Positions 2,802-58,751 of a stretch of DNA of 62,141 nt are shown one piece after another (position 1 is the stretch's first letter; each line of letters opens with the position of its first letter). The notes under the pieces were generated by a model that was given only the letters and a program-made list of their open reading frames with translations, made no database searches and was not told the origin of the DNA. The DNA comes from an uncultured Methanosarcinales archaeon (GTDB lineage: Archaea; Nanobdellota; Nanobdellia; Woesearchaeales; ARS49). A program made the translations under genes and the position numbers. The DNA is taken from contig CAZDUA010000031.1 in the NCBI GenBank assembly GCA_964508495.1, forward strand, positions 1 to 62,141. The letters are read 5' to 3'.

Positions 2802-2850
2802 GTATTGACGAAAACAGGCATTTTTATTTAATGTTTTGTGTCGTAAGCTT

Positions 2851-2857
2851 TTTATAA
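2851..2857 (+). promoter_or_regulatory. Archaeal TATA box (BRE-TATA) for a leaderless acyltransferase transcript
   Basis: aagcttTTTATAA ending about 25 nt upstream of ATG 2882. Confidence 0.5.
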
Positions 2858-2881: not shown

Positions 2882-3994
2882 ATGTATTTGATTCGTGGGT
2901 TGGATGATGGGGAAGTGGCTGGTGTTATCCAGCAGTTGGGTTCCAGTGATGGGCTAGTCCATGCTTTGTGCAAGGTGCGTTTTCCTTGGATATCGCGTGT
3001 TATGCCTGAGAATTTAGTTAGGAGGATGTTGGAAAAGGATTTTAGGAATATTGGTTCTGTTAAGGAGTTTCAGGGAGTGCTTTGCAAGTATGTCAGGTAT
3101 TTGATGAAATCTACTTCAGATGGTCTTTCTTGTTCTGGCTTGGAGAATATAGCTAAGAATGGAGTTGGCAAGATTTTTGTTTCCAATCATCGTGATATTG
3201 TTTTGGATTCTGTTCTTGTCGGGTATGAGTTGTATACTTCTGGTCATGGCTTTACGCGTGCTGGTTTTGGCAGCAATTTGGCGAGTATTCCTGAGGTTTC
3301 CGCTATTTTGCGCTTGTCTGGCGGTTTTATTGTTCCGCGTGGCGTTAAGGGCCGTGCATTGTATAATGCAGTTCATGAAGTTTCTTCTTATATTGATGAT
3401 GTCGTTAAGCAGGGTGGATTGGTTTGGATTGCCCAGAGAGAAGGCCGCGCCAAGGATGGCATAGATGAAACCAATCCTGCTGTGCTTAAGACTTTGCACT
3501 TGTCTTCCAAGGATTCTTTGTCTTTAGGCGAATTTGTTGGTTCAAGGGAGATTATTCCTGTGGCTGTGTCTTACGAGTGGGATCCTTGTGATATGATGAA
3601 GTCCAAAGAAGTGCAGGTTACTAAACAGACTGGCAAGTATACTAAGGTGAAGGGCGAGGATGAGGCTGCCATGCTTGCTGGCGTGCTTGGCAGAAAAGGC
3701 AGGGTTCATGTTGCTTTTGGAAGTCCTTTAAGCGGTGATTTTGCTGGTTACGAAGCCGTTGCCGGCGCGATTGATAAGCAGATTCATGATTTGTATCACG
3801 TGTGGCCTTCAAACGTTGCCGCTGTTTTCATGCTTAGAGGTGAGAGAATTGATGGCTGTGAAGAGCTTGAAAAGCGCATACAGGGCATGCCTGCTGAGTC
3901 CAAGGAGTGTTTGCTGAGGCTTTATGCTAATCCTGTTCAGAGTAAGTTTACCCACCAACAAGAGAAAGTAGTTTCTCAACTTCCGTCCAGTTGA
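2882..3994 (+). CDS. Glycerol-3-phosphate/lysophospholipid acyltransferase (LPLAT superfamily, bacterial type)
   Basis: FVSNHRDIVLDS (catalytic HxxxxD), WIAQREGRAKDG, IIPVAVSYEWDPCD, GRKGRVHVAFG. Confidence 0.8.
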   Translation: MYLIRGLDDGEVAGVIQQLGSSDGLVHALCKVRFPWISRVMPENLVRRMLEKDFRNIGSVKEFQGVLCKYVRYLMKSTSDGLSCSGLENIAKNGVGKIFVSNHRDIVLDSVLVGYELYTSGHGFTRAGFGSNLASIPEVSAILRLSGGFIVPRGVKGRALYNAVHEVSSYIDDVVKQGGLVWIAQREGRAKDGIDETNPAVLKTLHLSSKDSLSLGEFVGSREIIPVAVSYEWDPCDMMKSKEVQVTKQTGKYTKVKGEDEAAMLAGVLGRKGRVHVAFGSPLSGDFAGYEAVAGAIDKQIHDLYHVWPSNVAAVFMLRGERIDGCEELEKRIQGMPAESKECLLRLYANPVQSKFTHQQEKVVSQLPSS

Positions 3995-4532
3995 TTGATT
4001 TCCAGATTGTTTCTACATAGTCTGCTCGTTTCAAGTTGTAATCAATCATGAACGCGTGTTCGAACACGTCTATTACTAGTATTGGCGCGCAGGTTGCTAA
4101 ATGGCCGACGTCGTGTTCGTTTATCCAGCAGTTGAATAGTCTGCCTGTTGATATGTCGTAGTATGTTACTGCCCAGCCTATTCCTCTCATCGTGCAGGTT
4201 GCCTTTAGGTCTTTTTCGTAGTTTTCCCAGCTTCCGAATTGTTCTGTTGCTTTTTTCTTGAATTTGTCGCTTGCTTTTGGGTCTTTTGAGAGTATTCTGA
4301 AGAATACTTCATGCAGTCTCATGCCGTTGAACTCCCATCCAAAGCGTCTTTTTAGTTCTGCAAATTCCGGGTTTGCTTGTTTTCCTTCTTTTAGCATTGC
4401 TGAAACAGTATCAACGAGCTTGTTTGTATTGTTAACATAGCCCTGATAGAGTGTGAAATGATTCTTCATTAACTGGTCTGATAGTCCTTTGATTCCTAGT
4501 AGATGGTCGAAGTTTTTTGGTTCGTATGGCAT
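3948..4532 (-). CDS. sod: Fe/Mn superoxide dismutase family protein
   Basis: Metal ligands in HFTLYQGY, FNGMRLHE and DVFEHAF; GIGWA motif. Confidence 0.85.
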   Translation of the reverse strand: MPYEPKNFDHLLGIKGLSDQLMKNHFTLYQGYVNNTNKLVDTVSAMLKEGKQANPEFAELKRRFGWEFNGMRLHEVFFRILSKDPKASDKFKKKATEQFGSWENYEKDLKATCTMRGIGWAVTYYDISTGRLFNCWINEHDVGHLATCAPILVIDVFEHAFMIDYNLKRADYVETIWKSINWTEVEKLLSLVGG

Positions 4533-4566
4533 TTTATCACCTTAGAATACGGGATTGTTTGTTCTT

Positions 4567-4899
4567 TTAATATATTTCTATTGCTACGGTCTTTCCTTTG
4601 GTTGAGCAGAGCATTACTGATTGTCCTTTTTCTAGGTTTCTTGCGGTGTGTGGTGTTTCTTTTTCCATGTCTATTCTGTCGCCGGGTTTTAGCACGAAGC
4701 TTCTTCCTTCTGCACAGAATTCAACTTTGCCGGTAACAAGTATTCTTGTTTCGTCATATTTGTGCTGGTGTACGTTCATGAACTCGTTTTTTTCCATGAC
4801 TTCCAGGTGCGGTTTCATCCCTTCTTTTACCATCAAAGCTCTAAGTTCATCTTCTGTTGGCACTCTTGGCTTGTTCCAGGGTAAGTAACGGACGTTCAT
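4567..4899 (-). CDS. Cupin domain protein
   Basis: HQHKYDE...GKVEF...LKPGDRIDMEKETPHTARN cupin motifs 1 and 2. Confidence 0.8.
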   Translation of the reverse strand: MNVRYLPWNKPRVPTEDELRALMVKEGMKPHLEVMEKNEFMNVHQHKYDETRILVTGKVEFCAEGRSFVLKPGDRIDMEKETPHTARNLEKGQSVMLCSTKGKTVAIEIY

Positions 4900-4937
4900 T
4901 AGCCATTGGCTATTTCACTAGCTTATTAAAATTTTTG

Positions 4938-5894
4938 TTAAAACAGCCGTTTCTTGGCAAAAGTGCCAGGTATTAATCTGTAAGCTAGTCTTCCATCTGC
5001 GTAAAGCATTGGAATTCCTATTAGCGCCGTACAAGAAAGACAGGCTAACTTTGGCACATCTTTTGTCGTTCTTAGTGAAACATCGTGCTGCAGTTTTTCA
5101 AACTCTGGAGGGTAGAATATTCGGTTCAGGTAGCATCTTATCAGATCTCCCTTCCCATCTTTTTGGTATTTTATGACACTGCTGTTGCACTTTGTGCAGG
5201 ATATATCTAGAAGGTGTGCTTCCCCTCCTCTTGCAGTTCTGTATTTATCGTTTTTTAGCTTAAATTCTTTTGGGTCCATTTTCTCATCTCCGTTTTTTGT
5301 TGAAACTGGTTCAACTTTTTCATCTATGCAGGTAGAAAGTAAGAAATGCAGTCTGTGTACATTTTTTCTTACCTCTCCTTCATTTTGAAAGAACAAATTA
5401 ATTGAAGGCTGATATTCGCCTTTCTGAACTTTGTTCAGCTCTTGAACTGCAGCCGCATACCTTTTGCCATCGCCGTCTCTATCGTCTGTGCTAAGTCTCG
5501 ATTTCAGTGTTTGCAAATCAGGTGGCAGGACATAAACAGAATACTTGCGTACCTCTGGAAGTGATTCATTTAAGCAATCAATCCTGTCTATTGGCCAGTC
5601 GAGCAGTGGCTTCCGGTAACTTGAAAGAATTCGGTGTATTTCCTCTCTGGTCGGTCCATAAAAATTACCGTGAACTTCATTTGGACACACGATGACGCCG
5701 CTATTTGCGAGTTCAGAGAAACATTCTCTATCAACGTGTATTTTATCAGTTTCATTTTCTCTTAATTCTCTGGTCGTATATGGTCGCGGGTAATCATAAC
5801 TTAACGGGAATAGAGTGCGCAGTTCTCTGATAAGGGTTGTTTTTCCTGTTCCAGATGGTCCCAGTAGCAGGACTAGTGTTTTGTGTGTTTTCAT
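4938..5894 (-). CDS. Guanylate kinase-like P-loop domain fused to a C-terminal 4-Cys (putative zinc-binding) domain
   Basis: GPSGTGKTT P-loop, YTTRELRENE, HGNFYG, PPDLQTLKSRL. C-terminal SCTKC...YQKDG...RCYLNRI...ACLSC. Confidence 0.7.
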   Translation of the reverse strand: MKTHKTLVLLLGPSGTGKTTLIRELRTLFPLSYDYPRPYTTRELRENETDKIHVDRECFSELANSGVIVCPNEVHGNFYGPTREEIHRILSSYRKPLLDWPIDRIDCLNESLPEVRKYSVYVLPPDLQTLKSRLSTDDRDGDGKRYAAAVQELNKVQKGEYQPSINLFFQNEGEVRKNVHRLHFLLSTCIDEKVEPVSTKNGDEKMDPKEFKLKNDKYRTARGGEAHLLDISCTKCNSSVIKYQKDGKGDLIRCYLNRIFYPPEFEKLQHDVSLRTTKDVPKLACLSCTALIGIPMLYADGRLAYRLIPGTFAKKRLF

Positions 5895-6724
5895 TTTCTT
5901 TTTACTTTTGAGATGGAATAATGCAATCCTCGAATTGATTGTTCAACTTTGTCTCTCCAGTCTTTGTCCGTCGAATTATATGGGTAAAGTATTGCTCTTG
6001 AAGAATTTACAATCACGCCGCTGTCTTTTTGGTTGAAAAGGCATCGTATTTTTGTCAAATCGCCTCCTTGTGCGCCAACACCCGCATACAATATGGGCAT
6101 ATCGCTAGGTATTCTTTCCCTTATCCTCTCGAGCGAGGCATGTTCGGATAGGACTGGAATCATGTTTCGATTTTTGTTCCAATCACTTACTACCCGGTCC
6201 AGAATGTATGACCAAAGTGGCTCTTCTCGTTTTTTTGTTTCAGATTTTACCGGAATATCTTGTATTATGTTTGCTCCGGGATTGCTGGTTCTTACTAGCA
6301 CGGCAATGCCTCTGTCAGAGTAATTTGAAAACGCGTGGAAGACTTCTTGGCCCATGTAAGGATTTATGACGATTCCATCAGCATTGCAATTTTGGAAAAT
6401 GTTGCGCAAATATGCATGCATGGTATTCTCAATGTCGCCAATCTTGCAGTCAACTATTGCTGGCGCATCAGGAGCTGACTTGTGAATTGTACTGATTGCA
6501 TCTTTTAGCAGTTTTGTTCCATCGTAAAGATCAAAAAAAGCTTTTTGCAGCTTATATGCGGATGCGTATTTTGATGTTATTTCAATTATTTCAGTTAAAA
6601 ACCTTGAAACCGCTTCGAATGGAGGGAGATTTTTGTATTCATTCGGAATTTTACTTAAATCCGGATCTAAACCTACGCAGATGCTGGAATTAGGCTCATT
6701 TAAGAGTTTTAAGCAGTCTCTCAT
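5891..6724 (-). CDS. pyrF: Orotidine-5'-phosphate decarboxylase (type 2 subfamily)
   Basis: ICVGLDPD, AYKLQKAFF, DCKIGDIENT (DxKxxD), RTSNPGA, GVGAQGG, VNSSRAILY. Confidence 0.85.
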   Translation of the reverse strand: MRDCLKLLNEPNSSICVGLDPDLSKIPNEYKNLPPFEAVSRFLTEIIEITSKYASAYKLQKAFFDLYDGTKLLKDAISTIHKSAPDAPAIVDCKIGDIENTMHAYLRNIFQNCNADGIVINPYMGQEVFHAFSNYSDRGIAVLVRTSNPGANIIQDIPVKSETKKREEPLWSYILDRVVSDWNKNRNMIPVLSEHASLERIRERIPSDMPILYAGVGAQGGDLTKIRCLFNQKDSGVIVNSSRAILYPYNSTDKDWRDKVEQSIRGLHYSISKVKRK

Positions 6725-7521
6725 TTCAAACCCTCATAATCGTGGCCTAAAACGAGCTTTTTAGCTTCAAGATGCCTGGCCGTCCGTTCGGTTGGCGGTA
6801 CTGCTATGGCTTCGTTTTTAACGTCAAAACCGTTTCTAGTTAATGCTTCCAACTTTTTCGGATTATTTGTGCCGAGTAGTAGCTTGCTCTTCACGTCTAA
6901 AAACTTCAGAATTGCAACAGCGCCATCATATGTTCTGCAATCAATGTCATTGGCAGTGTTGTTTTTTTCTAACAGAGTGAAAGCCTCAACAGTGTTTACA
7001 CCTATACGTTCCTGTAAATAGAGTGTGGCGAGTTTGAAGTCTGTGCCTTTTCCCCTTCCATCTTGGTTTGGAATGTATATTATCAGTCCTTGCTCTTTTT
7101 CAGCAAGTCTTTTCATGGCCAAGTCTAATTGTTCACGACATTCGCAGGTTTTATCATGAAACAATTGCCCCGTCGTACATCCAGAATCTATTCTAAGAAA
7201 GACGCTTTTTTCTTGTTTGAATGCGGGACGCATCAGTGTGCTGTCAAGGTCCGATTTTGCTATTGCGTAATACGTACCCCATTCATCGTTAACTTTGAAT
7301 ACCATCTGGTAGAATTTGCCGTATGGTGTGTCAAGAGGTCCACAGCCTTTTTTGGTTACATCATATGAATCGTTTCCAATAAGTATTGCTCTTGTACACT
7401 GTTTTTTAGAATTTTCAGCTTCTGATATTATGTCAAGTAGCTCGGTCTGATTTATTTTATACTTTTGAGAAAGTTCCTTAGTAAAATCAAAATAGTCGAA
7501 TTCTCCGTTTTGAGTTGCCAT
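6721..7521 (-). CDS. GTP cyclohydrolase II (RibA)-like protein, divergent subfamily
   Basis: LRIDSGCTTGQLFHDKTCEC (three Zn Cys), QDGRG, NTVEA, DCRTY, TNNPKKL, KKLVLGH. Confidence 0.8.
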   Translation of the reverse strand: MATQNGEFDYFDFTKELSQKYKINQTELLDIISEAENSKKQCTRAILIGNDSYDVTKKGCGPLDTPYGKFYQMVFKVNDEWGTYYAIAKSDLDSTLMRPAFKQEKSVFLRIDSGCTTGQLFHDKTCECREQLDLAMKRLAEKEQGLIIYIPNQDGRGKGTDFKLATLYLQERIGVNTVEAFTLLEKNNTANDIDCRTYDGAVAILKFLDVKSKLLLGTNNPKKLEALTRNGFDVKNEAIAVPPTERTARHLEAKKLVLGHDYEGLK

Positions 7522-7522
7522 T

Positions 7523-7954
7523 TTAAATGTTGAACGTTTCCCTCATCAAATCACCGATTATCGTGTACTTCTGTACCTGCAAAACGCCTGGCAATTGATG
7601 CATTTCTTCCGCAAAATCCTCTATTTCCTTGAGGTCTTTTCCTATAAATTCTGCCAGAAAGTCGTATCCTGAGTTGATTTTGTGCAGGTTGTTTATTGCC
7701 ATGTGCTGCTCCAAGTATTCTCGCACTCTGTCTCTTCCTGTTGGTGTTGTTTTGATTGCAAAGCATGCTCTTGTGTATCCGAGTTTTGCGAAATCAAGCA
7801 GTGCTGTGCTTTTGTGGATGATGTTGCCGTGATACCGTTTGACTTTGTCGTGTACTGTTGATGCTGGCATGTTGAGCTCTCTTGCGAGAGCAAGTAGTGA
7901 GGTTCTTGCGTTCTTTCTGAGCGCAGAGAGCAGTCGAAATTCGTTTTCATCCAC
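7523..7954 (-). CDS. Lrp/AsnC family transcriptional regulator (true start probably GTG at 7954, not 8023)
   Basis: LLSALRKNARTSLLALARELNMPASTVHDKV HTH; ALLDFAKLGY; SGYDFLAE. GGGGTGA RBS just upstream of GTG 7954. Confidence 0.8.
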   Translation of the reverse strand: MDENEFRLLSALRKNARTSLLALARELNMPASTVHDKVKRYHGNIIHKSTALLDFAKLGYTRACFAIKTTPTGRDRVREYLEQHMAINNLHKINSGYDFLAEFIGKDLKEIEDFAEEMHQLPGVLQVQKYTIIGDLMRETFNI

Positions 7955-7959
7955 ATGAT

Positions 7960-8196
7960 TCACCCCATCTGTTCGAGGGCTGCCTTTTTGGCTTCGCCTT
8001 CGATTTTTGTTTTGCTTCCGCACCGTCCGCAGAGTACGAACAGCTCATTTGTTAGTGGAATTATTGGTATGAAGTAGAGCGTGAACCACTCTGTTAGTTT
8101 GACGAGGCCGTGCATCGTTTTTCGCTTGCAGTTCTTGCACGGCTTGTTGGCTTCACCAAGCACTTTCGGTTTGCTCTTGTAGCCGAAGAGTATCAT
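7960..8196 (-). CDS. Zinc-ribbon domain protein
   Basis: CKNC...WFTLYFIPIIP...CGRC. Confidence 0.75.
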   Translation of the reverse strand: MILFGYKSKPKVLGEANKPCKNCKRKTMHGLVKLTEWFTLYFIPIIPLTNELFVLCGRCGSKTKIEGEAKKAALEQMG

Positions 8197-8378
8197 GACC
8201 TGCCTCCGAATATCATCACGAGAATTCCTACAATAGCAAGCGCTCCTGCCACGTATGACTGCGATTCTCCGAGTAGGTTTAGTAGTTTGAACTGGAGGCC
8301 GAAGAATGGAAGTACAAATCCTCCTGCTCCAAAGAAGAACATCATTGCGCCGAGTCCTCTTGCTGACATTTTACGCAC
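8193..8378 (-). CDS. Small membrane protein (2 TM)
   Basis: Two hydrophobic segments; overlaps both neighbours in operon fashion; GAGGTG RBS. Confidence 0.55.
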   Translation of the reverse strand: MRKMSARGLGAMMFFFGAGGFVLPFFGLQFKLLNLLGESQSYVAGALAIVGILVMIFGGRS

Positions 8379-8622
8379 CTCCTATGAATAAGTACATTAT
8401 CGAAATGTAGAGGAAGTACAATCCACCTGCAACGCATGCTGCTCCGATTAATCTTGCCATGGCCGGATGATGTTGTGTGCCGTCGTTTTTCTCCAGTTTG
8501 CCTCTCACTAATGCTATTATTCCGCCTATTGCGAATAGTAATCCGATTATTATTCCGCCAACAGCTACTACTCCTGGTGGCAGCGTTCTTAGCAACGCTT
8601 TGAGTCCCACATATTGTCCCAT
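8371..8622 (-). CDS. Small membrane protein (2 TM)
   Basis: Two hydrophobic segments; first gene of the minus-strand run. Confidence 0.5.
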   Translation of the reverse strand: MGQYVGLKALLRTLPPGVVAVGGIIIGLLFAIGGIIALVRGKLEKNDGTQHHPAMARLIGAACVAGGLYFLYISIMYLFIGGA

Positions 8623-8775
8623 TTTCTTTCCTCCAAAGCTTCGTAAAGCTTCCTTGACTATTGTAAGTTATACGAAGAAAGCGTAAGATATATACTTTGT
8701 TCAATTATAATTATTACTAATAACTATATAATTACAAAGGAAAGAATTATATACTTGGAAGGTTTCTACTATTGT

Positions 8776-9732
8776 ATGAAGCGTAAAATAAACAGGGTTG
8801 GAACGTCAACTTTGACTGTTTCACTGCCGAGCAAGTGGGCCCAGAAATATGCCTTGAAGCCGGGACAAGAAGTTGAAGTTTTTGAAGAGGGCAGAATTGT
8901 GCACATTTCCGCAGGCGCAAATGTCAGGAAGGGCAATAAGACGATCATCAATATTGATGAATTCAATGCTCTTATGGTTAACAGGCTTCTTAACGAACTT
9001 TACAATTCAGGTGTTGACGAGATCATTATTAACTTCTCAAAGCCCACGGTTCCTAATTACAAAACTGGAGAATCTGTTGAAGTAGAGAAGTACATTAATA
9101 GGCTTCTTCCCAGATTTATAGGTCTTGAAATAGTATCTCAAACGCCTGGCAAGATTATATTGCAAAACCTGCTTCCGGTAGAAAAAACAGAAAAGCTGGA
9201 TGTAATTCAAAAGCGTACTTATTTTCTTATCAAGGAATTCTTAAGCGAATTTATCAAGAACTTGAACAATTTCAGTAGTTTTTATCCAAAAGTCTATGAT
9301 TACCATGATGCCGTGGATAGGTTCATTAATTATTATCTGAGGTTAATCTCTGCATCAGATTTAGGCGAGCATCAAAAGGCAAGAGCGGCTACGTTTTATG
9401 AGAGAATAAAGACAGTATTGGATAAAGTTAGGCACACTAGCGAAAGGCTTTCAGAAATGAAGATGATTACTCCAAAGATAAAGTCTTATGTTGCTGAAAT
9501 CTTCAATTACTATATGTCCCAGTTTGACTTTATTTTCAAATCAGGCATAACTACAAAGGAAGTCGATGGTATCGTAAAAAAAAGATATGAACTCGTCAAT
9601 AAAATTAATCAAGAAAGGTTTAATGAGAGAGAAGCAAGAGTGATTTGGGAGTGCAGGAGCATGGTTGATACAATTGTTGAATTTCTTGATGAGTACATTC
9701 AATTGAATTCTGAGAGCTTTAGAGCTGCTTGA
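8776..9732 (+). CDS. AbrB/MazE-like DNA-binding domain + PhoU-like helical domain regulator (archaeal phosphate-uptake regulator family)
   Basis: MKRKINRVGTSTLTVSLPSKWAQKYALKPGQEV N-terminus; GLEIVSQT; helical C-terminus. ATG 8776 is a likelier start than 8755. Confidence 0.75.
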   Translation: MKRKINRVGTSTLTVSLPSKWAQKYALKPGQEVEVFEEGRIVHISAGANVRKGNKTIINIDEFNALMVNRLLNELYNSGVDEIIINFSKPTVPNYKTGESVEVEKYINRLLPRFIGLEIVSQTPGKIILQNLLPVEKTEKLDVIQKRTYFLIKEFLSEFIKNLNNFSSFYPKVYDYHDAVDRFINYYLRLISASDLGEHQKARAATFYERIKTVLDKVRHTSERLSEMKMITPKIKSYVAEIFNYYMSQFDFIFKSGITTKEVDGIVKKRYELVNKINQERFNEREARVIWECRSMVDTIVEFLDEYIQLNSESFRAA

Positions 9733-10873
9733 GTTTTTTTAAGGTTTCTTGCAGGACTTTTTTAGCGCTAATCTGACAAGGATATTCATCTCTCAAAGTA
9801 TGGCCATTTTTTAGAAAAGTTCTCAGGGAAGTAATATAGTTGATTCTTCGCGATTCATGGTCAAGAAGCCCAGTTGGCTGGCAAAGATAAGCTGCTGCTG
9901 CGAGTAATGCTTGGAACTCTCTGGCTGATTCTGGCTGGCTTCTTAAGTAATATCTTAATTTTCCTTTCTCACTTACGTACTCCTCTTTTTCCACCTGCAT
10001 GCATGCTTTTTCAAGTTCTGAAAACTTTTCAAGAAGTTCTTCTTGATATTCAATTGCTGGCTTTTTCTCATTCAGCGATTTCACTCTCTCACCGATTTTT
10101 TCTCGTCTAACTGCTTTATCTGGTGAGTTGTCAATCAGATGCTGACCCGTTAGTTGCTCATAGAGTACCAATCCAACTGACCATGCGTCATAATCATCCG
10201 CCCATTCCTTTGCTCCGAGATAGATTTCCGGAGGTCCATATGTTAGTGAGCCCCACATGCCGTCAAATTCTTGTGTTGCAAGACCAAAATCCACAAGGTA
10301 CGGTTTTGAATTTTCGCTTAAAACAATGTTCTCTGGGCGTATATCTCGGTGAAATATGGGGTTTGGAATTGTGATTCCAGAATACGCCCATTTCATCTGC
10401 AAAATTACTAAGGCGTCAAATAAGCCCTTTGCGATAGCTGGAAAATCTTTAATTTGGTGACTTAAACCCAATTTTCCATCAATTACAGTACGTAGCGATG
10501 GAACTCCAAAATGATGGCTTCTGGGGAGCAGATAAGACCATTTTGGAAGGCGCGTGAATAAAATTCCTGTATAATCTCCTTTAATTGGTACCACGTCTTC
10601 TATTTTCGCTATGTTATCATGGTCATCAAGCCAGGCGAGTATTTTTGCCTCATTTTTTGTACGCTCTACAGGGTCGAGTTTTGAATGTTCATACCCTGAA
10701 AGAGGTACATCCGGACCTAGTAAATCGTGAGGCAAGTTGACTTTCAAAAGATTTACAAGATTCACCCTTGCACGTTTTACTACGTACATCTCTGACAAGT
10801 TTCCAGAGGGAAGCTCACCTAAAACTTCCATCCCATCATGTATTACGTCCCCTGCTTGCAATATCTTACCCAT
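9719..10873 (-). CDS. Ser/Thr protein kinase (Hanks type)
   Basis: HRDIRPENIV catalytic loop, DFGL, YGPPE, DAWSVGLVLYE. Confidence 0.8.
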   Translation of the reverse strand: MGKILQAGDVIHDGMEVLGELPSGNLSEMYVVKRARVNLVNLLKVNLPHDLLGPDVPLSGYEHSKLDPVERTKNEAKILAWLDDHDNIAKIEDVVPIKGDYTGILFTRLPKWSYLLPRSHHFGVPSLRTVIDGKLGLSHQIKDFPAIAKGLFDALVILQMKWAYSGITIPNPIFHRDIRPENIVLSENSKPYLVDFGLATQEFDGMWGSLTYGPPEIYLGAKEWADDYDAWSVGLVLYEQLTGQHLIDNSPDKAVRREKIGERVKSLNEKKPAIEYQEELLEKFSELEKACMQVEKEEYVSEKGKLRYYLRSQPESAREFQALLAAAAYLCQPTGLLDHESRRINYITSLRTFLKNGHTLRDEYPCQISAKKVLQETLKKLKQL

Positions 10874-12614
10874 TTTTGCCTATATCGGTTTTTCTCAGTT
10901 CATAAGAATTTTGAAGCGTTTGAATCGTTTGTGCAACGCGATAATTGTACGGCGATTCAATATCTCGTGCATCCTTGCCGCCAAAGAATGAATTATCAAA
11001 AAAACAATTTGACATGATGAATTCGATAATCGATTGGGCGCCGTCGATAAGTGCGGCATCCTTCAAAGTGTTAAAAAAATTGTGCTGATAGAACAAATTG
11101 AGCTTATTTTTGGTTTCAGTATCGATCTTCAATTGTTCTTTCTCAAAATATTCCGCACATTCTTTTGGATTGAAATCAATTGCTTTTACAACGTTAGCAA
11201 GCGGATTTTTAATTACGCCCTCAATTCCTTCTCGTACATTGTTAAGAAGTTTTTGTTGCTGGTCAATCATGAATGTCATATACTGATCAGGTTCTTTCAC
11301 TTTATCAATCTCTTTTGATGAGAAGAATTTGTTACCAGTAAGCATTTCATAAAGTATGACTCCTAAAGACCATAAATTATCACGCGGCACAACGTCATAT
11401 GCTGTTTTGTTGCGCGATAGTTTGAGCATGCGAGGTGATGCATAATCGATAGGCCAGTGTTTCCAAATTTCTTTTGTGTCGTATATTGCATCGTTAAAAT
11501 CCGTTAGTTTTACACCGTCTTTGTCAATTCCAACATTGTGGGGTGCGAGATCGTAATGCATTATTCCACGCTCATGGCAAGCTGCCAGCGCAGTCAGCAT
11601 TTGTTCAAAGTAAAGCATTGCATCAGAAAATTTAATCCGTGATCCGCTATTCTCAAGTTTTTCTTTCAATGTTTGTTCGAAGGGTTCCATTGGCAATACG
11701 AATTTGCCTTCCATCTCAAATGGATCATAATAGGTAACTATGTTTGGGTGTCTAAGTTCTCGCAGTTTTTCGATATTTCTGACAACCGCGTCTATTGGAA
11801 CGTCCTGATTAACTATTTTAACTGCAACTTCTCCTGAATACTTGTTTTGCGCTAGATATACATCGCTGACGCGTCCACTGCCGAGCTTTCTAAGAGGATT
11901 GTAATTTGAGGGCAATTCTAATTTTGCAAGCTCGATTATTTCCTCAAGCGGCATTCTTTCTTCTTTTGCCTCCTCTTTTTTCATGTAGTTGATTATCTTT
12001 CTCAGTTTACTATTTGTTAGAATCAGATGCACCGCTTTTGCAAAGTTTGGATCAGTTTGGTATGCTGTTGTTCCGCAGAATATGGCTGTTTTCTTGATAA
12101 AGTCCAGTTTTTCAGGCAGTTTATCTTCTTGCTCGATGAATCTGGTGTAGGGCAGTTCTCTGCCTTCTGCGAAAATGAAGTCAATTGCGCTGAAAAACTC
12201 GCTTGAGACCGGTTCAGGTAATTTTTCCAAAGGTTCTTTTATTTCAGTTAATATTTCTACAAGGGTGTCAAGACAAGCATTCGATTTTTGTGCAATTTCT
12301 TCTTTTTCTTTGTCTACTTTTTCTCCATCATATTCCAGAAATTGAAGGGTATCGCTTACTGACACATATCTCGCAGCATGCATTGAAATTGTGTCCATGG
12401 CTTTTTGTTTCAGTGAAGAGCCTACATATGACTTGACAAATCTGAACGTTTTTCTATATGCCTGCTGCTCTTCTGATGGAAGGTCTGGCCTATCTTCATC
12501 TATCCACTCATGTTCTACATTACTGAAGAATTCATCCAGTCCTTTGCGGATGGCTTTCATTGCGCCTTCTATATTCTTCCTGCGTATGTCTTCCTCGCTG
12601 TCAAAGTCACCCAT
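10866..12614 (-). CDS. Ser/Thr protein kinase-like protein with N-terminal helical domain; degenerate motifs
   Basis: LGSGRVSDVY, VAVK, HPNIVTYYD, HYDLAPHNV, DFN, YASPR, LWSLGVILYE. Confidence 0.75.
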   Translation of the reverse strand: MGDFDSEEDIRRKNIEGAMKAIRKGLDEFFSNVEHEWIDEDRPDLPSEEQQAYRKTFRFVKSYVGSSLKQKAMDTISMHAARYVSVSDTLQFLEYDGEKVDKEKEEIAQKSNACLDTLVEILTEIKEPLEKLPEPVSSEFFSAIDFIFAEGRELPYTRFIEQEDKLPEKLDFIKKTAIFCGTTAYQTDPNFAKAVHLILTNSKLRKIINYMKKEEAKEERMPLEEIIELAKLELPSNYNPLRKLGSGRVSDVYLAQNKYSGEVAVKIVNQDVPIDAVVRNIEKLRELRHPNIVTYYDPFEMEGKFVLPMEPFEQTLKEKLENSGSRIKFSDAMLYFEQMLTALAACHERGIMHYDLAPHNVGIDKDGVKLTDFNDAIYDTKEIWKHWPIDYASPRMLKLSRNKTAYDVVPRDNLWSLGVILYEMLTGNKFFSSKEIDKVKEPDQYMTFMIDQQQKLLNNVREGIEGVIKNPLANVVKAIDFNPKECAEYFEKEQLKIDTETKNKLNLFYQHNFFNTLKDAALIDGAQSIIEFIMSNCFFDNSFFGGKDARDIESPYNYRVAQTIQTLQNSYELRKTDIGKNG

Positions 12615-12673
12615 ACTGCCTATTTATACTCGAGAATATATAAACTTTACTCACTATCCAGTTACAAAAACAC

Positions 12674-13834
12674 CTATAGATGCCTGTAAACGTTCAAAGA
12701 ATATGACAGTCCTGCTCCGAATTCTACGAACAAAACATAGTCTCCGCGTTGTATTCTGCCTGTTTTTAGTGCGACGTCAAACGCGTGTGCTGGGCTTGCT
12801 GTTGAGCTGTTGCCGAACGTGTCGCCTGTTATTATGAGGTCTTTTACGATTGGGAAGTCTTTTTGTGCCTTTATTGCTTTGAGCATGCTTGGGTTTGCTT
12901 GGTGTGGAACGATTATTGGCGGTTCTTTGCAGTGTTCTATTCCTTTTTTGATTAGTTCTACTGCTTTTTTGACCGCCCACGTGTATACTGTTCTTCCGTT
13001 TTGTTCGAAATATCCGTTATTCAGTTTTATTGCGTCGCGCATTGTGCTGTCTGTTTCAATTAAATTGTAGATAAATCCTGGTTGTTCGCTCGGCCCTAGC
13101 AATGCAGCGCCTGCTAGTTCTCCGAATAAGACGACTGATTTTCTGTCTTTTTGGTTTGTGACTTGGTGCATTTTGTCAACGCCGACAACTATAATGTATT
13201 GCGACTCTTTTTTTATTGCGGCATCTGCGAGCGCTAAACCATAACCGTGTGATGCGCATCCTGTTGTCAAATCGTATGAGCGTTCTGCGTTTAGTCTGAA
13301 TTCTATTGCTATTGCTTGTGAGAGTCCTGTTTGTTTATGCTGGTAGACTATTGCGCCTTTTTTTAATTCCCGCATTCGTGGGAAGTCATCTATTTTTATT
13401 GTTTTGTCTACGAGGACTGGGCTTCCTGTTAGTTGTGTTGCGGCTTCTATTGCAGAAGAAATGTCTGTTGTTATCACGTCAAATGCTGGCGCGTTTCCTG
13501 CATTGATGTGCTGGTGTATTTTTGATGCCTCGCATGGTATGAGCAATGGTAGTGGAGGATTAAGGAATGGCATGTGTGTGTTTCCTGCGAGTATGATGCT
13601 TATTTGCTCTCGTGGAATGTCTGGCCTTTTGTCTAATATTCGCTTGACTGTTTGCATTGCCATGTATTCTTGTGTTTCCCAGTCTTCTGCTATTCTTCTT
13701 TCTAGAATTCCAGTGCAGTTTTGTATCCATTCTTCTGATGTTCCTTCAGTGTCTTTCAGCATTTCGACTAGGTCTTTGTTTGTTCGTACTTTTGCTGGAA
13801 CATAACTTTCTGTTTCTAATATCGTGCTGTGCAT
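12674..13834 (-). CDS. fabH: 3-oxoacyl-[ACP/CoA] synthase III (FabH family) with a ~70-aa insertion
   Basis: TGILERR, YDLTTGC (Cys), LFGELAGAALL, PHQAN (His), GNSSTAS (Asn), FGAGLS. Confidence 0.8.
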   Translation of the reverse strand: MHSTILETESYVPAKVRTNKDLVEMLKDTEGTSEEWIQNCTGILERRIAEDWETQEYMAMQTVKRILDKRPDIPREQISIILAGNTHMPFLNPPLPLLIPCEASKIHQHINAGNAPAFDVITTDISSAIEAATQLTGSPVLVDKTIKIDDFPRMRELKKGAIVYQHKQTGLSQAIAIEFRLNAERSYDLTTGCASHGYGLALADAAIKKESQYIIVVGVDKMHQVTNQKDRKSVVLFGELAGAALLGPSEQPGFIYNLIETDSTMRDAIKLNNGYFEQNGRTVYTWAVKKAVELIKKGIEHCKEPPIIVPHQANPSMLKAIKAQKDFPIVKDLIITGDTFGNSSTASPAHAFDVALKTGRIQRGDYVLFVEFGAGLSYSLNVYRHL

Positions 13835-13892
13835 AATAAAATTTTCTCGTCTATTAAGACTATAAAAGCTTTATTGTGAAACTTAACGCGCG

Positions 13893-14765
13893 TTATTGCC
13901 ACGTTGCGATTATGTCTTCTACTTTGCCTTTCCTGAAGAATGCGTTGTATGTTGCTGTTATTGTTGGTATTCTTATGTTGTGTTGTTCTGCGTATTTTTG
14001 TATTATTTGGAGTGTTCTGTGGCCTTCTACTGTTTGTTCTGGTTTTGGTAATGGTTTGCCTTTCTTGATTGCGTCTCCGAATTGGTGGCCAAATTGGTGA
14101 TTGCGGGATGTTTCGCTCATGCATGTGGCGAACAAATCGCCGATAAAGCTTAATCGTGGTATTGACGCGCTTCCTTTGTGTTCGTAGATGTGGTCTATTT
14201 CTCTTAGTGCGAATGCGATATAGCTTCCCATGGAGTTGCACGCGTTGTCTGAGTAATAGCCGTCTAGTAGTCCTGATCCGAGTGCTGCGATATTTTTTAT
14301 CGCTCCGCCGAACTCTACGCCTACTGCGTCTGTTTCTGGGACTACTCTGAAGGATGGTGAGTTGAATAGTCTTGTCCATTCTTGCGCATGGTCGCCTGCT
14401 ATTACTGCCATTGCGGGCCTGCCCAGCATTATTTCCACGCTTAGGTTTGGCCCCATTAGTGCTGCTGTTGGGTTTTTGAGTTCTTGTTTGATTAGTTCTG
14501 TTGGCGTTTTGAGATCGTCATATAGTCCTTTTACACAACTGAGTATTTTTGCTTCTGGGTTTATTATTCCTGATATCATGTTTACGCAATCTGCTAATGC
14601 TGGGGAAGGGACGCAGATTACTATCATGTCTGCTTGTTTTATTTTGTCTACTGCTTCTCCGCTGTATGTTCCGTCTGGCTCTAATTCTACGAATTCGTTT
14701 TGGTTATTGCCTAATAGTTTAGAAATGGCATTTCCAAACTTGCCTGCGCCGATTATTGTTATCAT
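13893..14765 (-). CDS. gpsA: NAD(P)H-dependent glycerol-3-phosphate dehydrogenase
   Basis: IIGAGKFG, CVKG, MGPNLSVE, GVEFGGAIKNIAA, GDLFATC, SRNHQFG, VEG. Confidence 0.85.
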   Translation of the reverse strand: MITIIGAGKFGNAISKLLGNNQNEFVELEPDGTYSGEAVDKIKQADMIVICVPSPALADCVNMISGIINPEAKILSCVKGLYDDLKTPTELIKQELKNPTAALMGPNLSVEIMLGRPAMAVIAGDHAQEWTRLFNSPSFRVVPETDAVGVEFGGAIKNIAALGSGLLDGYYSDNACNSMGSYIAFALREIDHIYEHKGSASIPRLSFIGDLFATCMSETSRNHQFGHQFGDAIKKGKPLPKPEQTVEGHRTLQIIQKYAEQHNIRIPTITATYNAFFRKGKVEDIIATWQ

Positions 14766-14777
14766 TCTGTGAGACTA

Positions 14778-17700
14778 TTATGCCAGCTCTTTTAATCTTT
14801 TCTGTAAGAACTTGGCTATTTCATCATCCCACGAGCGGGGTACTGTTTTGCTGAAGAGTTCTTTCATCCATTTTAGTGTTTCTGGCCTGAATCCTTCTTT
14901 GTCTCCTGCTATCATTTTGTAGATGTCATAGCGTATTTGCGCGTCTAACTTGGCTCTTTTGGCTGCCTTGTTGAATTGTTCGAACAATTTTTGTTTTTCC
15001 TCTTCGACTTTTTCTTCTTCTTTTGCTGTTTCTTCGTTCCAGAAGTCTTGGTATGAGAAGTCTCCTGTTTTCAGGTCTTCTAAAACTGTAAATAGGAATT
15101 TTTTGAGTTCGTCCGGCCAGTTTGCTTCTATTTCTTTTTGGTATTTCTTGCATCCTTCGATGAACCGGGGGTCTATGTTGGTTCTTTCGCCGTCTATTAT
15201 TCTGACTAGTTCTGCTTTTGCGAATTTTGGCGTGTGTTTGACATTCCATGCTTCTCTTTTGAGTATTTCTTTGAAATCGTTGCGTTCTTCTTTTGCGCCT
15301 TCTATGTATTTTGTTGGGCTGATGTGTTTTGTTTCTTTTCCTGATATTTTTGCGAGTATTTGCTCATGCATTCTGCGCAGGAATTCGTATTTGTCTTCTA
15401 TTCTTAGCACGTCCATGTATCCTTGCAGTGCCAGGTTGAGTCCAAATGGTGTTGGTATTGTTGTTTCTATCTCTGTTATTTTTATTGTGCCATCTTCTAT
15501 GCCCTGTAGCACTTTTTTGGTGTTTTCAATGTCCATTAGGTCTTCTAGGCATTCTCTTTTTGCTTCGTTTAGTATTGCGAAGTTGGGGTCTAGTTGTTTT
15601 AACGCGGACATTAGTATCATTGAGCTGACTTGTTGTCTTCCGACTCGTTTCTGTCTGCCCATGTAGTTGCGTAGTATCATTAATGAGCGTGTTGCGCAAT
15701 GTCTGAATCTTCTTTTGAAAACTTCGCTTTTTTCGATTGCGTTGTTCATTATCATGTTTATTTTGTCTGCTTTGAGTAGTTTTATGGCTTTGACCGGGTT
15801 GAGTTTTTTGTTTCCGTTGATGTAGAATCCGTTGTCGCTTATTCCAAGCTCTACATCTTTATGTTCTGTGCGTGATAGTGCGAATGCTACTGCTCTGCTC
15901 AGGCAATCGTTTACGCGTCTGCCGAGAAGTGTGTGGAAGATTATTTTTTGGTCTCTTTCATCAGCATAGTACTCAACCAGTATTGTTTTGTCGTTTGGTA
16001 TTTTTTTGCAGTAGTCGTATTGTTCTTTGAAATATTCATAAATTGCGTTTGCTGCTTTATCGTCAACGTAGAGGTGTTCGTTGATGAATTTGAGTATGAT
16101 CGCCTTATTTTCTCCCGCGCTGAGTCTGTCCAGCATCAGTCTTCTGAATCTTCCTATCGTGTTTGCTAAGTCGAAGCTTAGTGGGAGCATTTCTGATGCC
16201 CATCTTGGCACTGTTGGGGGCCTGTTGACTGATGTTCCTACTTGTGCTACCATGCCTCTGGTAAACTTGAACATGTAAGTTTCTCCGCCAAGAACAAAGA
16301 CATCTCCTGGTTTTAGTCTTTCAACAAATCCTTCGTCAAGCATTCCTACTGTTTCTGTTCCTATTTTGACTGTGACGAATGATTCGTCTGGGATTGTTCC
16401 TATGTTTGTCATGTATATGACTCTTGTCATTTTGCCTCTTTTGCCTATTTTTCCGTCTGCTCTCCAGATTTTTGCGTAGATGTTTCTGTCTTCTAGATCA
16501 ACATATTCGCCTGCTAAGTAGCTCAATATCTGGTTGAAGTCATTCAGTTTCAAGTCTTTGTAACAGTAGCTTTTTTTGACTGTTTTGTAGAGTTCTTTTT
16601 CTTCCCAGACTTGTTGTAGTGCCATTCCGATTAGTTGTTGTGCTAGAACGTCGAGTGCGTTTGTTGGGATGTGTACTTTGTCTATTTTTTTTTCTACCGC
16701 GCTTTTTAGCAAGACTGAACATTCAACTAAGTCATCTCTGTCCATGACGATTATTCTTGCTTTTACTGTTTCGTGTAGTTTGTGCCCGCTTCTGCCTGCT
16801 CTTTGCAGGAATCTTGCGACTGATTTTGGCGAGCCAAGGCAGATTACAAGGTCTATGTAGCCGATATCAATTCCTAGTTCAAGTGATGTTGAACAAACGA
16901 CTGCTTTCAACTCGCCGTTTCGTAGTTTTTCTTCGATGTCTAGGCGCATTCTTTTGCTCATGCTGCCGTGGTGTGCGCCTATGTTTCCGATGTATTTCTT
17001 GGGAAATCTTGTTTTCAAATGGTCTACTACTCTTTCTGTTGCTGCTCGCGTGTTTGTGAAGACTAATGTTGTTTTGTGTGATTGTATTAATTCGTCAATG
17101 AGCTCGTACATCGCGTGGTGTGCTGTGCCGTGGGGAGTGTCAATCAGGTTTTCTACTGGCGACATAACTTGTAAGTCGAGGTTTTTCAAGAATTGAATGT
17201 CAATTACAGTGCAAGGTCTTCCTACTCCTACAAGGTATTTGCCGATTTCTTCTATTGGTGCGACTGTTGCGCTTAGTCCTACTCTGCACATGTGAGTGGA
17301 CAGGTGTTGTAAGCATTCAAGTGATAGTGAAAGATGTGTTCCTCGTTTGTTTTCAGCCAGTGCGTGAATCTCGTCTACTATGCACCAATCAACGTTTTTC
17401 AAATGTTCTCTGAACTTTACTGAAGCTAGCATTATTGCAAGACTTTCTGGTGTTGTTATCAGGATGTGTGGCGGTTTTTTGAGCATTTTGCTCTTTTCAT
17501 TTGCAGTTGTATCGCCTGTTCTTACTCCTACTCGTATGCCTAATGATTTTCCAGCTAGGTTTTCTATTTGTTCTAGTGGTTCTTTCAAGTTTTTAGAAAT
17601 GTCATTGGAAAGTGCTTTTAGTGGTGAAATGTATATCGCGTAGACTTTGTCTTGCAGTATTCCTTTTTCTGCGGAATCGACAAGCTCATTCAATATTGAT

Positions 17701-17909
17701 AGGAAGCCGGTTAGCGTTTTTGTTGCGCCGGTTGGTGCGGATACAAGGATGTTGTTTCTGGAGTGTATCTCAAGCACTCCGTAGAGCTGTGGTAAGGAGA
17801 AACTAGTAAATCTGGAGAAGAACCATTTCTTTATTGTTGAGTTTAGTATGCCTTCTACTTCTTCTTTGGTGTTGGGTTTCTCTTTCCGTTTTATTAGATT
17901 ATCTTCCAT
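14778..17909 (-). CDS. lhr: Lhr-like ATP-dependent SF2 helicase (Lhr-core plus C-terminal extension); probable start ATG 17909
   Basis: APTGATKT, YISPLKAL, TTPESL, DEIH, LSAT, FTNTR, HHGS, SLELGIDIG, QRAGRSGH, NIGTIPD. TATA at 17961-17968 argues against the 18086 start. Confidence 0.9.
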   Translation of the reverse strand: MEDNLIKRKEKPNTKEEVEGILNSTIKKWFFSRFTSFSLPQLYGVLEIHSRNNILVSAPTGATKTLTGFLSILNELVDSAEKGILQDKVYAIYISPLKALSNDISKNLKEPLEQIENLAGKSLGIRVGVRTGDTTANEKSKMLKKPPHILITTPESLAIMLASVKFREHLKNVDWCIVDEIHALAENKRGTHLSLSLECLQHLSTHMCRVGLSATVAPIEEIGKYLVGVGRPCTVIDIQFLKNLDLQVMSPVENLIDTPHGTAHHAMYELIDELIQSHKTTLVFTNTRAATERVVDHLKTRFPKKYIGNIGAHHGSMSKRMRLDIEEKLRNGELKAVVCSTSLELGIDIGYIDLVICLGSPKSVARFLQRAGRSGHKLHETVKARIIVMDRDDLVECSVLLKSAVEKKIDKVHIPTNALDVLAQQLIGMALQQVWEEKELYKTVKKSYCYKDLKLNDFNQILSYLAGEYVDLEDRNIYAKIWRADGKIGKRGKMTRVIYMTNIGTIPDESFVTVKIGTETVGMLDEGFVERLKPGDVFVLGGETYMFKFTRGMVAQVGTSVNRPPTVPRWASEMLPLSFDLANTIGRFRRLMLDRLSAGENKAIILKFINEHLYVDDKAANAIYEYFKEQYDYCKKIPNDKTILVEYYADERDQKIIFHTLLGRRVNDCLSRAVAFALSRTEHKDVELGISDNGFYINGNKKLNPVKAIKLLKADKINMIMNNAIEKSEVFKRRFRHCATRSLMILRNYMGRQKRVGRQQVSSMILMSALKQLDPNFAILNEAKRECLEDLMDIENTKKVLQGIEDGTIKITEIETTIPTPFGLNLALQGYMDVLRIEDKYEFLRRMHEQILAKISGKETKHISPTKYIEGAKEERNDFKEILKREAWNVKHTPKFAKAELVRIIDGERTNIDPRFIEGCKKYQKEIEANWPDELKKFLFTVLEDLKTGDFSYQDFWNEETAKEEEKVEEEKQKLFEQFNKAAKRAKLDAQIRYDIYKMIAGDKEGFRPETLKWMKELFSKTVPRSWDDEIAKFLQKRLKELA

Positions 17910-18030
17910 ATTGAAAATAATTAATAGTGCTTTATCCTGTCCATTAATGCTTATCGTCGATATAAAAAGGTTACGAATAGTTGTCCAGTGAGCCAAAAAG
18001 CTTTTAATTAACCGCTGTAAAGTCTCGAAA

Positions 18031-24779: not shown

Positions 24780-24808
24780 CCAAACCTCTGAGTTACCGGC
24801 GAGGAGGG

Positions 24809-24830
24809 TTCAATGACGTGAGTCATTGAA
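24809..24830. repeat. Perfect 9-bp inverted repeat TTCAATGAC-gtga-GTCATTGAA
   Basis: Read directly; overlaps the stop codon of the small gene upstream of dnaJ. Confidence 0.8.
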
Positions 24831-24981
24831 ATCGTCCTTTGACTTTATGCTCTTCATTGTTTAGAACGTGTTCGAATTCTGCTTGGACTACTTTGTTTAT
24901 CGCCCATTGGCCTGCGAGTTTTATGGCTACGTATATTGCGACCAGTGCGATTGCGGCGTATGCGATTATTTTGTATTCCAT
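24823..24981 (-). CDS. 52-aa single-TM protein inside the dnaK-dnaJ operon
   Basis: Not in ORF track. [52 protein letters not shown]; its ATG overlaps the dnaK TAA (TAATG). Confidence 0.7.
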   Translation of the reverse strand: MEYKIIAYAAIALVAIYVAIKLAGQWAINKVVQAEFEHVLNNEEHKVKGRFQ

Positions 24982-27289: not shown

Positions 27290-27349
27290 AATATCCCCAC
27301 CCACATTGGTTGACTTTACGTCAACTGAGTAGATTGTAACCATAACTTC

Positions 27350-58678: not shown

Positions 58679-58751
58679 ATGCCCTGGTTAAGACGGGAGG
58701 TTTAAAAAGCTTTGCAGAAATAATATATAGTTAGGTGCATTATGTCTTCTG

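Follow-up and report, generated by a model that had tools for sequence, protein, structure and literature searches.

The 62,141-nucleotide contig CAZDUA010000031.1 (assembly GCA_964508495.1, deposited as an uncultured Methanosarcinales archaeon), referred to here as the window, carries genes for three proteins of the kinds used in bacterial glycerolipid synthesis. These are a short NAD(P)H-dependent sn-glycerol-3-phosphate (G3P) dehydrogenase, GpsA; a condensing enzyme resembling FabH, or 3-ketoacyl-acyl carrier protein synthase III (KAS III); and an acyltransferase of the lysophospholipid acyltransferase (LPLAT) superfamily that resembles PlsB and glycerol-3-phosphate acyltransferase 1 (GPAT1). 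An open reading frame (ORF) check of the window confirmed all three where the initial annotation had placed them (Table 1), and all are intact, compositionally ameliorated and under purifying selection in a contig that is genuinely archaeal, of Woesearchaeota type (DPANN). We put at about even the chance that the three products take part in the synthesis or re-acylation of acyl glycerolipids based on G3P, by a route that would be independent of acyl carrier protein (ACP) in the window lineage; the locus hints at ester-lipid synthesis in an archaeon and is no proof of it. A lipid role is best supported by more remote Woesearchaeota, in which a gene for a PlsB-like protein overlaps gpsA.

Glycerol-3-phosphate dehydrogenase

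GpsA matches PF07479 (E 1.8e-27, 96.7 bits with a cutoff of 25), PF01210 (E 4e-19, 69.5 bits, cutoff 23.1) and PF20618 (49.2 bits, cutoff 27.6), and its best matches in the PDB are the G3P dehydrogenases of T. maritima, Coxiella and Leishmania. Alignments of 25 and of 11 sequences, bacterial GpsA included, leave K78, K156, N157, D209, T213, R220 and N221 invariant, seven residues that we take, by comparison with the GPD1 and LmGPDH structures, to be catalytic or substrate-binding; the KG, GPN, GGAxKN, GDLxxT and SRN motifs are invariant as well. Bacterial GpsA (EC 1.1.1.94; T. maritima structure 1Z82) has the same Pfam domains, the same GxGxxG motif together with those just named, and the same predicted reaction, reduction of dihydroxyacetone phosphate (DHAP) to G3P. 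It is, however, about 335 amino acids long and only about 30% identical to the window protein, which is without a Rossmann-domain segment of about 25-35 residues, a deletion common to the DPANN GpsAs aligned.

The immediate clade of the window protein comprises about 48 clusters at 50-97% identity, 286-300 amino acids long, the named ones being from Woesearchaeota. The next relatives found by an exhaustive HMMER search are 36-41% identical, 343-350 amino acids long and, where named, from Woesearchaeota or Nanoarchaeota, with the bulk of bacterial GpsAs further off at about 30-35% identity. Against the closest relative of the window (L002; related loci are given L numbers here) dN/dS, the ratio of nonsynonymous to synonymous divergence, is 0.036 for GpsA. 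The gene is resident and constrained, and its product is predicted, almost with certainty, to be an active DHAP reductase. GpsA in Woesearchaeota has already been published (PMC5059525, PMC6431249, PMC8204110).

The gpsA start is 12 nt past the stop codon of a gene for an Lhr-type helicase, and a promoter motif scan found no TATA-like hexamer upstream of gpsA; because of the short gap and the lack of a promoter motif of its own, gpsA is probably co-transcribed with lhr. A same-strand Lhr gene is also upstream of gpsA in L004-L010, L012, L085, L089 and L097, mostly directly and in some cases with 1-4 intervening genes; the synteny extends across about 10 independent metagenome-assembled genomes or contigs. 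The partner is the helicase rather than the plsY or der of bacterial gpsA.

FabH-like condensing enzyme

The claims that gpsA is adjoined on the same strand by a FabH-family gene, and that the latter is of that family, were borne out by the ORFs, by the Pfam domains of both proteins and, for the second, by the fold of its model; the two genes are separated by a 58-nt spacer, with the FabH-like gene downstream. Both KAS III domains are present (PF08545, 54.5 bits; PF08541, 55.5 bits), matched in two separate stretches, as is FabH in NCBIfam. The AlphaFold2 model (pLDDT 95) has FabH structures as its top Foldseek matches, with E 1e-31 and a target-normalised TM-score up to 0.89, and its thiolase-fold core superposes on E. 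coli 1HN9 and Y. pestis 4YLT with target-normalised TM-scores of 0.84-0.89. The HQAN and GNxS motifs of FabH are kept, the Cys192-His310-Asn341 triad is invariant in 22 sequences, and the CoA-contact residues matching W32, R151 and N247 of the E. coli enzyme are invariant too.

Canonical FabH is about 320 amino acids long. Residues 2-86 and 184-378 of the window protein align to FabH 6-85 and 107-313, and between them, before the catalytic Cys192, is an insertion of about 75 residues (about residues 87-183) that is modelled confidently as extra beta-alpha units. Unlike FabH, all 17 archaeal homologues aligned (370-420 amino acids, several of them from contigs that also carry a short GpsA) have a structured insertion of about 75-100 residues just before the nucleophile elbow. 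Origin of the insertion by internal duplication, to which a PAFDV ... SYDL repeat seemed to point, gained no support, as the self-alignment score of the window protein was reached by 45 of 300 shuffles and those of the 17 homologues by 9-279 of 300.

A further difference from FabH is that all six basic residues with which the E. coli enzyme docks ACP (R36/R40/K214/R249/K256/K257) are replaced in the window protein, by C/L/T/S/A/Q respectively. Its two nearest relatives have the same residues or close variants of them; in the other archaeal homologues these positions are still mostly R or K. From the alignment we read the enzyme as no longer using ACP in the window sub-lineage, and with the docking patch gone its extender would probably be malonyl-CoA, not malonyl-ACP.

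Besides the window, L004, L006, L007, L085 and L089 have the FabH-like gene next after gpsA, which is the order in about half of the related lineages, and in L006, L007 and L085 the spacing is only 2-6 nt. The genes downstream of gpsA and the FabH-like gene in L006, L007, L085, L087 and L089 encode MFS, TPM, LemA, kinase and similar proteins, with no other lipid genes among them.

Acyltransferase

The third protein only just passes the PF01553 threshold (25.3 bits, cutoff 23), but its best sequence matches (the PlsB core and, in the PDB, the 901-amino-acid G3P acyltransferase 9vuq) and its best structural match fall in the PlsB/GPAT1 branch of the LPLAT superfamily. The AlphaFold2 model (pLDDT 88) finds human GPAT1 first (8e4y, E 5e-11), then PlsC 5kym and plastid GPATs. 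Shared with that branch are a motif III-like EGR, within AQREGRAKDG, and a motif IV-like IPVAVSYE, within IIPVAVSYE, both longer stretches being invariant or nearly so among homologues. No transmembrane segment is predicted, and the protein is predicted to be soluble or peripheral. PlsB has about 800 residues to its 370, and, in contrast to PlsB and GPAT1, it belongs to a large family of which no characterised member could be found and whose named members are gammaproteobacterial.

A homologue search gave 7613 significant matches. Two archaeal sequences are about 85% identical to the window protein; the best 117 otherwise listed are about 35-43% identical to it, and the named ones are gammaproteobacterial ‘1-acyl-sn-glycerol-3-phosphate acyltransferases’ from genera that include Motiliproteus, Marinobacterium, Shewanella, Halomonas, Psychromonas and Vibrio. 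Elsewhere the family is known mainly from marine Gammaproteobacteria. In a neighbour-joining tree the archaeal trio has a long branch in the vicinity of three sequences, of which one is titled Pseudomonadales, and the tree singles out no donor. In one homologue (P0008, 499 amino acids, from ENA) the motif I-II region is internally duplicated. Identity as an LPA acyltransferase (LPAAT) of the PlsC4, PlsC5 or YihG type was considered and discarded, since those enzymes have a canonical H-x4-D and form a different clade (PMC9541089).

Among the archaeal relatives the gene is present only in the window and in L002 and L003. It is flanked by genes for superoxide dismutase (SOD) and a DUF84 NTPase, between which there is nothing in L007, L010, L085 and L089; this places its arrival in the ancestor that the window organism shares with L002. 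In L002 it is only 0.9 kb from gpsA. The window and L002 proteins (2882-3994 and L002:10001-11113) are 85% identical, whereas most flanking genes give 93-98.5%. Synonymous divergence (dS) is 0.40, as compared with 0.27-0.48 for the neighbours, with dN about 2-12 times theirs and a dN/dS of 0.22 that is roughly 2-11 times that of conserved neighbours and well below 1. Higher dN at equal dS means either that constraint is relaxed or that the protein is still adapting after transfer. By these comparisons the acyltransferase is a separate and later acquisition, now under purifying selection and apparently served by an archaeal promoter.

PlsB-like genes overlapping gpsA in other Woesearchaeota

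In L091 (GCA_016203225.1, Woesearchaeota; 8904-13386) a gene for a PlsB-like acyltransferase of the 374-383-amino-acid class overlaps the 5′ end of gpsA, and L093 (GCA_964362535.1, Nanoarchaeota; 8880-14429) has the same overlap together with an extra gene for a 207-amino-acid PlsC-like protein. The gpsA of both is of the 343-350-amino-acid form. The overlap is also seen in L092, L094, L098 and L099, and a metagenome scan for further operons of this kind gave at least two loci. Partnership of gpsA with PlsB-related ‘mini-GPATs’ is thus a repeated arrangement in Woesearchaeota. The neighbourhood in L091 mixes archaeal and bacterial lipid genes, as carS and a CDP-alcohol phosphatidyltransferase gene are 1.3-2.3 kb downstream. 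The overlap, once near these two genes, ties G3P synthesis to glycerolipid assembly in the phylum.

The L091 and L093 proteins match the PlsB core with E 4e-21 and are homologous to the window family (HHalign probability 97.8%), with which they share the length class, GDNL, ISYE and C-terminal YAN motifs and an association with gpsA. However, their identity to the window protein is no more than about 25%, and they have a canonical H-x4-D (HRSHLDY/HRSEVDY) where the latter has H-x5-D, and are encoded by genes that overlap gpsA, while the window protein is 40% identical to bacterial sequences. On this comparison the window acyltransferase is a xenologue relative to them.

Origin and integrity of the contig

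Scanning GTDB species genomes with the GpsA alignment yielded nine close relatives, whose titles are Candidatus Woesearchaeota, Nanoarchaeota or a dubious ‘uncultured Methanosarcinales’. Several GTDB representative genomes (L004, L005, L006, L008 and L010) bear the last title despite clear Woesearchaeal synteny and are probably mislabelled third-party annotation assemblies. That the contig is archaeal throughout, a point on which the initial annotation had wanted assurance, is supported by genes for ribosomal protein L15e, family-B DNA polymerase (PolB), a short TIM and the Lhr helicase, which is of the PRK13767 type, and by synteny with named Woesearchaeota and Nanoarchaeota genomes. Several relatives share a backbone of cupin, SOD, DUF84 NTPase, LEA2 and purine genes further along. 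Scans of the 62 kb gave neither a tRNA gene nor an Rfam match at gathering score.

The acyltransferase and FabH-like genes have native promoter motifs. A motif A[AG]GCT[TA]W5 occurs 13 times in the window, and nine of the 13 occurrences are 25-49 nt upstream of a same-strand start. It looks like a BRE/TATA consensus (transcription factor B recognition element and TATA box) and would imply leaderless mRNAs or ones with very short leaders. Positions include 2845, 13871, 17998, 18860, 23701, 36711, 44532, 58712 and 59889, mostly with a spacing of 33-37 nt. As both the acyltransferase and the FabH-like gene carry it 37 nt from their ATG, both have the promoter type of the host. A sigma-70 promoter and terminator scan of the window was uninformative, the model being bacterial and the host archaeal.

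The acyltransferase has its nearest homologues in Gammaproteobacteria and the data are metagenomic throughout, and on these grounds an assembly or binning artefact that joined bacterial DNA to an archaeal contig has to be considered. But identical junctions recur in independent assemblies and samples: a Logan contig (SRR9952630) is 100% identical across positions 3893-15129, and the acyltransferase genes of GCA_975752655.1 and of a contig from another run have these SOD and DUF84 NTPase genes on either side as well. The GC level of the window is even (0.39-0.45), and GC and GC at third codon positions of all three genes are at most about 1.2 standard deviations from its mean. The promoter motifs are archaeal and correctly spaced, the dS of the acyltransferase is that of flanking archaeal genes, and its identity to any bacterial sequence is only about 40%. 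A chimera is very unlikely.

Possible functions

The bacterial-type lipid genes fall into two layers, for which substrates, pathway coupling and any membrane product are our inference. In the older and resident one, GpsA, from a transcript probably shared with Lhr, would reduce DHAP to G3P, and the FabH-like enzyme, from its own promoter, would prime acyl chains from acyl-CoA, probably with malonyl-CoA rather than malonyl-ACP as extender in the window sub-lineage. In the later layer, limited to a narrow lineage, the soluble or peripheral PlsB/GPAT1-like acyltransferase, under its archaeal promoter, would form the ester from acyl-thioesters that are either scavenged or, with the help of the KAS III enzyme, made or lengthened. 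Host-derived acyl donors, which the initial annotation entertained, are pure conjecture. Its broader proposal, that the organism may make or remodel G3P-fatty-acyl ester or hybrid lipids, gains from the intact and constrained state of the genes, the conserved gpsA-FabH-like pair and the PlsB-like-gpsA arrangement elsewhere.

A number of findings weigh against a joint lipid role. The three genes have separate histories, with the acyltransferase of different origin, and they are dispersed: the acyltransferase gene is on the + strand, and the other two are on the - strand at distances of 8.7 kb (FabH-like gene) and 9.9 kb (gpsA). Of the ‘toolkit’ that had been seen between 2882 and 14765, the three genes and the same-strand adjacency of two of them stand, but the interval is not one gene cluster. 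Profile scans of the 62 kb found no ACP, fabD/F/G/Z/I, acc, plsX/Y/C or cdsA, and no egsA, GGGPS or other archaeal lipid genes; ORFs with an ACP-like DSL motif were also absent from the window. The further lipid genes that the initial annotation would have sought in the genome are therefore not within the window, and, in contrast to FabH loci, no ACP or other fab gene is near the FabH-like gene, whose protein has moreover lost its ACP-docking residues. At the gpsA locus of L002, the nearest relative, and of L008, L010 and L012 there is no FabH-like gene, which must therefore be dispensable or located elsewhere in those lineages. Curated models are not reached: the best NCBIfam model for GpsA, a divergent and shortened form, is NF000942 with 170 bits against a cutoff of 257; the FabH-like protein scores 193 against 249 with NF006829, in two stretches; and the acyltransferase scores 28.6 bits against 618.5 with TIGR03703 (PlsB), matching only profile positions 284-375 of 799. 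In L095:3072-4645, L096:1173-2746 and L097:10001-11586, which represent deeper short-GpsA lineages, gpsA overlaps a gene for a 235-amino-acid metallophosphoesterase, with a radical-SAM gene upstream of the pair (directly in L097, with a NUDIX gene between in L095). This pairing suggests glycerol formation, redox balancing or another non-lipid use. Head groups and the metabolism of glycerol are further uses of G3P in archaea (PMC6431249).

Clearly less probable than a shared lipid role, if still to be reckoned with, is the absence of any functional connection between the three genes. GpsA would then supply G3P for polar head groups or, in a fermenter, act as a redox sink that takes DHAP to G3P (and on to glycerol), the FabH-like enzyme would carry out a CoA-dependent condensation to a non-membrane product, e.g. 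as an NphT7-like acetoacetyl-CoA synthase or in forming a small polyketide, and the acyltransferase would merely re-acylate scavenged lipids. The dispersed positions and separate histories, the phosphoesterase overlap, the lost ACP-docking residues and a nearest relative with a 98%-identical GpsA yet no FabH-like gene at the locus all accord with this, as does the view of Coleman et al. that archaeal G3P dehydrogenase need not be lipid-related (PMC6431249). Set against it are the 2-6 nt between gpsA and the FabH-like gene in several lineages, the 0.9 kb between the LPLAT gene and gpsA in L002, and the PlsB-like-gpsA overlap elsewhere in Woesearchaeota, in L091 near carS and a CDP-alcohol phosphatidyltransferase gene.

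A narrower doubt concerns the acceptor. The initial annotation had named an HxxxxD glycerol-phosphate acyltransferase. While the acyltransferase ORF is there, with its PF01553 match, its motif I, N-H103-R-D-I-V-L-D109, is an H-x5-D, which 50 homologues share without exception, and HMMER and HHalign agree in placing one inserted residue in it as compared with HRSHxD in PlsB (an H-x4-D). The enzyme might accordingly not be a G3P or LPA acyltransferase and might instead acylate a phosphorus-free lyso-lipid or some other hydroxyl acceptor, a reading that we find doubtful. No curated GPAT or LPAAT model in NCBIfam is reached, and the gammaproteobacterial homologues are stand-alone genes without informative lipid neighbours, in hosts that are presumed to have PlsB and PlsC already. 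Bacterial enzymes with H-x5-D that have been characterised, namely SqdA, SalA and the OlsF N-terminal domain, do acylate phosphorus-free lyso-lipids (10.1101/2022.08.18.504050; PMC8319176). However, fungal GPATs with H-x5-D are genuine G3P acyltransferases (PMC4207751), the sequence and fold of the window protein are closest to PlsB and GPAT1, its family is homologous to the PlsB-like proteins whose genes overlap gpsA in other Woesearchaeota, and it does not match the one OlsA model that surfaced in NCBIfam scans.

The shared role in G3P-based glycerolipids can be extended to the claim that a Woesearchaeal clade builds G3P acyl-ester or mixed ether/ester membrane lipids without ACP, from GpsA, the insertion-bearing KAS III and the mini-GPATs. 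This stronger version we consider unlikely. It would have the KAS III, devoid of ACP docking, build acyl-CoAs that mini-GPATs esterify onto the sn-G3P made by GpsA, the mini-GPATs being native in some lineages (overlapping gpsA, beside carS) and a xenologous H-x5-D protein in the window. PlsY and PlsC accept both glycerol-phosphate stereoisomers, with PlsB strict for G3P (PMC13400652), and for that reason stereochemistry is not readable from gene content.

Neighbouring genes

Table 1. Features of the window discussed in the text
Feature	Position	Strand	Remarks
BRE/TATA-like motif AAGCTTTTTAT	2845..2855	+	37 nt upstream of acyltransferase ATG
LPLAT-superfamily acyltransferase, PlsB/GPAT1-like ‘mini-GPAT’ family, 370 aa	2882..3994	+	motif I NHRDIVLD
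KAS III (FabH)-like condensing enzyme, 386 aa	12674..13834	-	PF08545 and PF08541, E ~1e-15
BRE/TATA-like motif AAGCTTTTATA	13861..13871	-	37 nt upstream of FabH-like ATG
GpsA, NAD(P)H-dependent sn-glycerol-3-phosphate dehydrogenase, short DPANN form, 290 aa	13893..14765	-	PF07479/PF01210/PF20618
Lhr-type helicase	14778..18086	-	NF010338, 1154 bits; conserved upstream neighbour of gpsA
Ribosomal protein L15e	38718-39263		archaeal information-processing gene
Family-B DNA polymerase (PolB)	39547-41952		archaeal information-processing gene

Between the acyltransferase and FabH-like genes are those for SOD, cupin, a guanylate-kinase-like protein, pyrF, GTP cyclohydrolase II, an AsnC regulator, small ORFs, a MazE-like gene and two Ser/Thr kinases. 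For a small archaeon the window is unusually rich in signalling genes: it has four eukaryotic-type Ser/Thr kinases (9719-12614, 36748-38442, 44568-47015), two of them encoded directly downstream of the FabH-like gene, and also the cyclase described below. A protein of about 320 amino acids with an N-terminal MazE/AbrB domain is found by large Ser/Thr kinases in two lineages (window 8755-9732; L087:11241-12197). A CHASE2-adenylate/guanylate cyclase is encoded between two FecR-domain proteins at 56208-59858, and the FecR-CHASE2 cyclase pair recurs in L093. A full bacterial-type DnaJ-DnaK-GrpE operon is at 23712-27343, such operons having been reported for many DPANN (PMC8204110), and 29407-35130 encodes a 1907-amino-acid protein (Big_9, cadherin-like, PKD and CarboxypepD_reg domains) that probably acts as a giant adhesin or surface protein. 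A candidate sn-glycerol-1-phosphate (G1P) dehydrogenase beside the L089 locus, indicated by an Fe-ADH_2 match, turned out to be AroB, 3-dehydroquinate synthase (NCBIfam 340 bits, cutoff 305).

Implications

Models of early cell evolution and of eukaryogenesis turn on the lipid divide, between G1P-ether lipids in archaea and G3P-ester lipids in bacteria, and the bacterial-type lipid genes of DPANN, listed in surveys, are usually dismissed as patchy. Bacterial fatty-acid genes and a G3P dehydrogenase have been reported near genes of the methylerythritol phosphate (MEP) pathway in a Woesearchaeal clade (PMC8204110), FabG/I/Z, ACP genes and cyclopropane fatty acid (CFA) synthase in DPANN metagenome-assembled genomes (PMC10936187), while PlsB homologues were not found in archaea by a 2019 survey (PMC6431249). 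As both GpsA and fatty-acid genes are already on record for Woesearchaeota, the window is a further case with new details. We found no description of the insertion-bearing KAS III family or of the loss of its ACP patch, of PlsB-related acyltransferases in archaea, or of the PlsB-like-gpsA arrangement, in one genome beside carS. The bacterial-type lipid genes of Marine Groups II and III and Lokiarchaeota, known from surveys of GpsA, PlsC and PlsY, are likewise patchy, derived by horizontal gene transfer and from metagenomic bins (PMC6431249), but in the window the acyltransferase is PlsB-related and gpsA has a KAS III gene linked to it.

For one Woesearchaeal clade at least, then, gpsA is old, strongly constrained and repeatedly linked to acyl-lipid enzymes. 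The short GpsA, the KAS III without its ACP patch and the two kinds of PlsB-like mini-acyltransferase are clonable candidates with which the question of archaeal ester lipids, and of their synthesis free of ACP, can be approached. If the answer is negative, the locus would be a piece of ordinary DPANN metabolism shaped by horizontal transfer; if ester lipids are indeed made independently of ACP, this would be an archaeon that crosses the lipid divide with its own enzyme variants.

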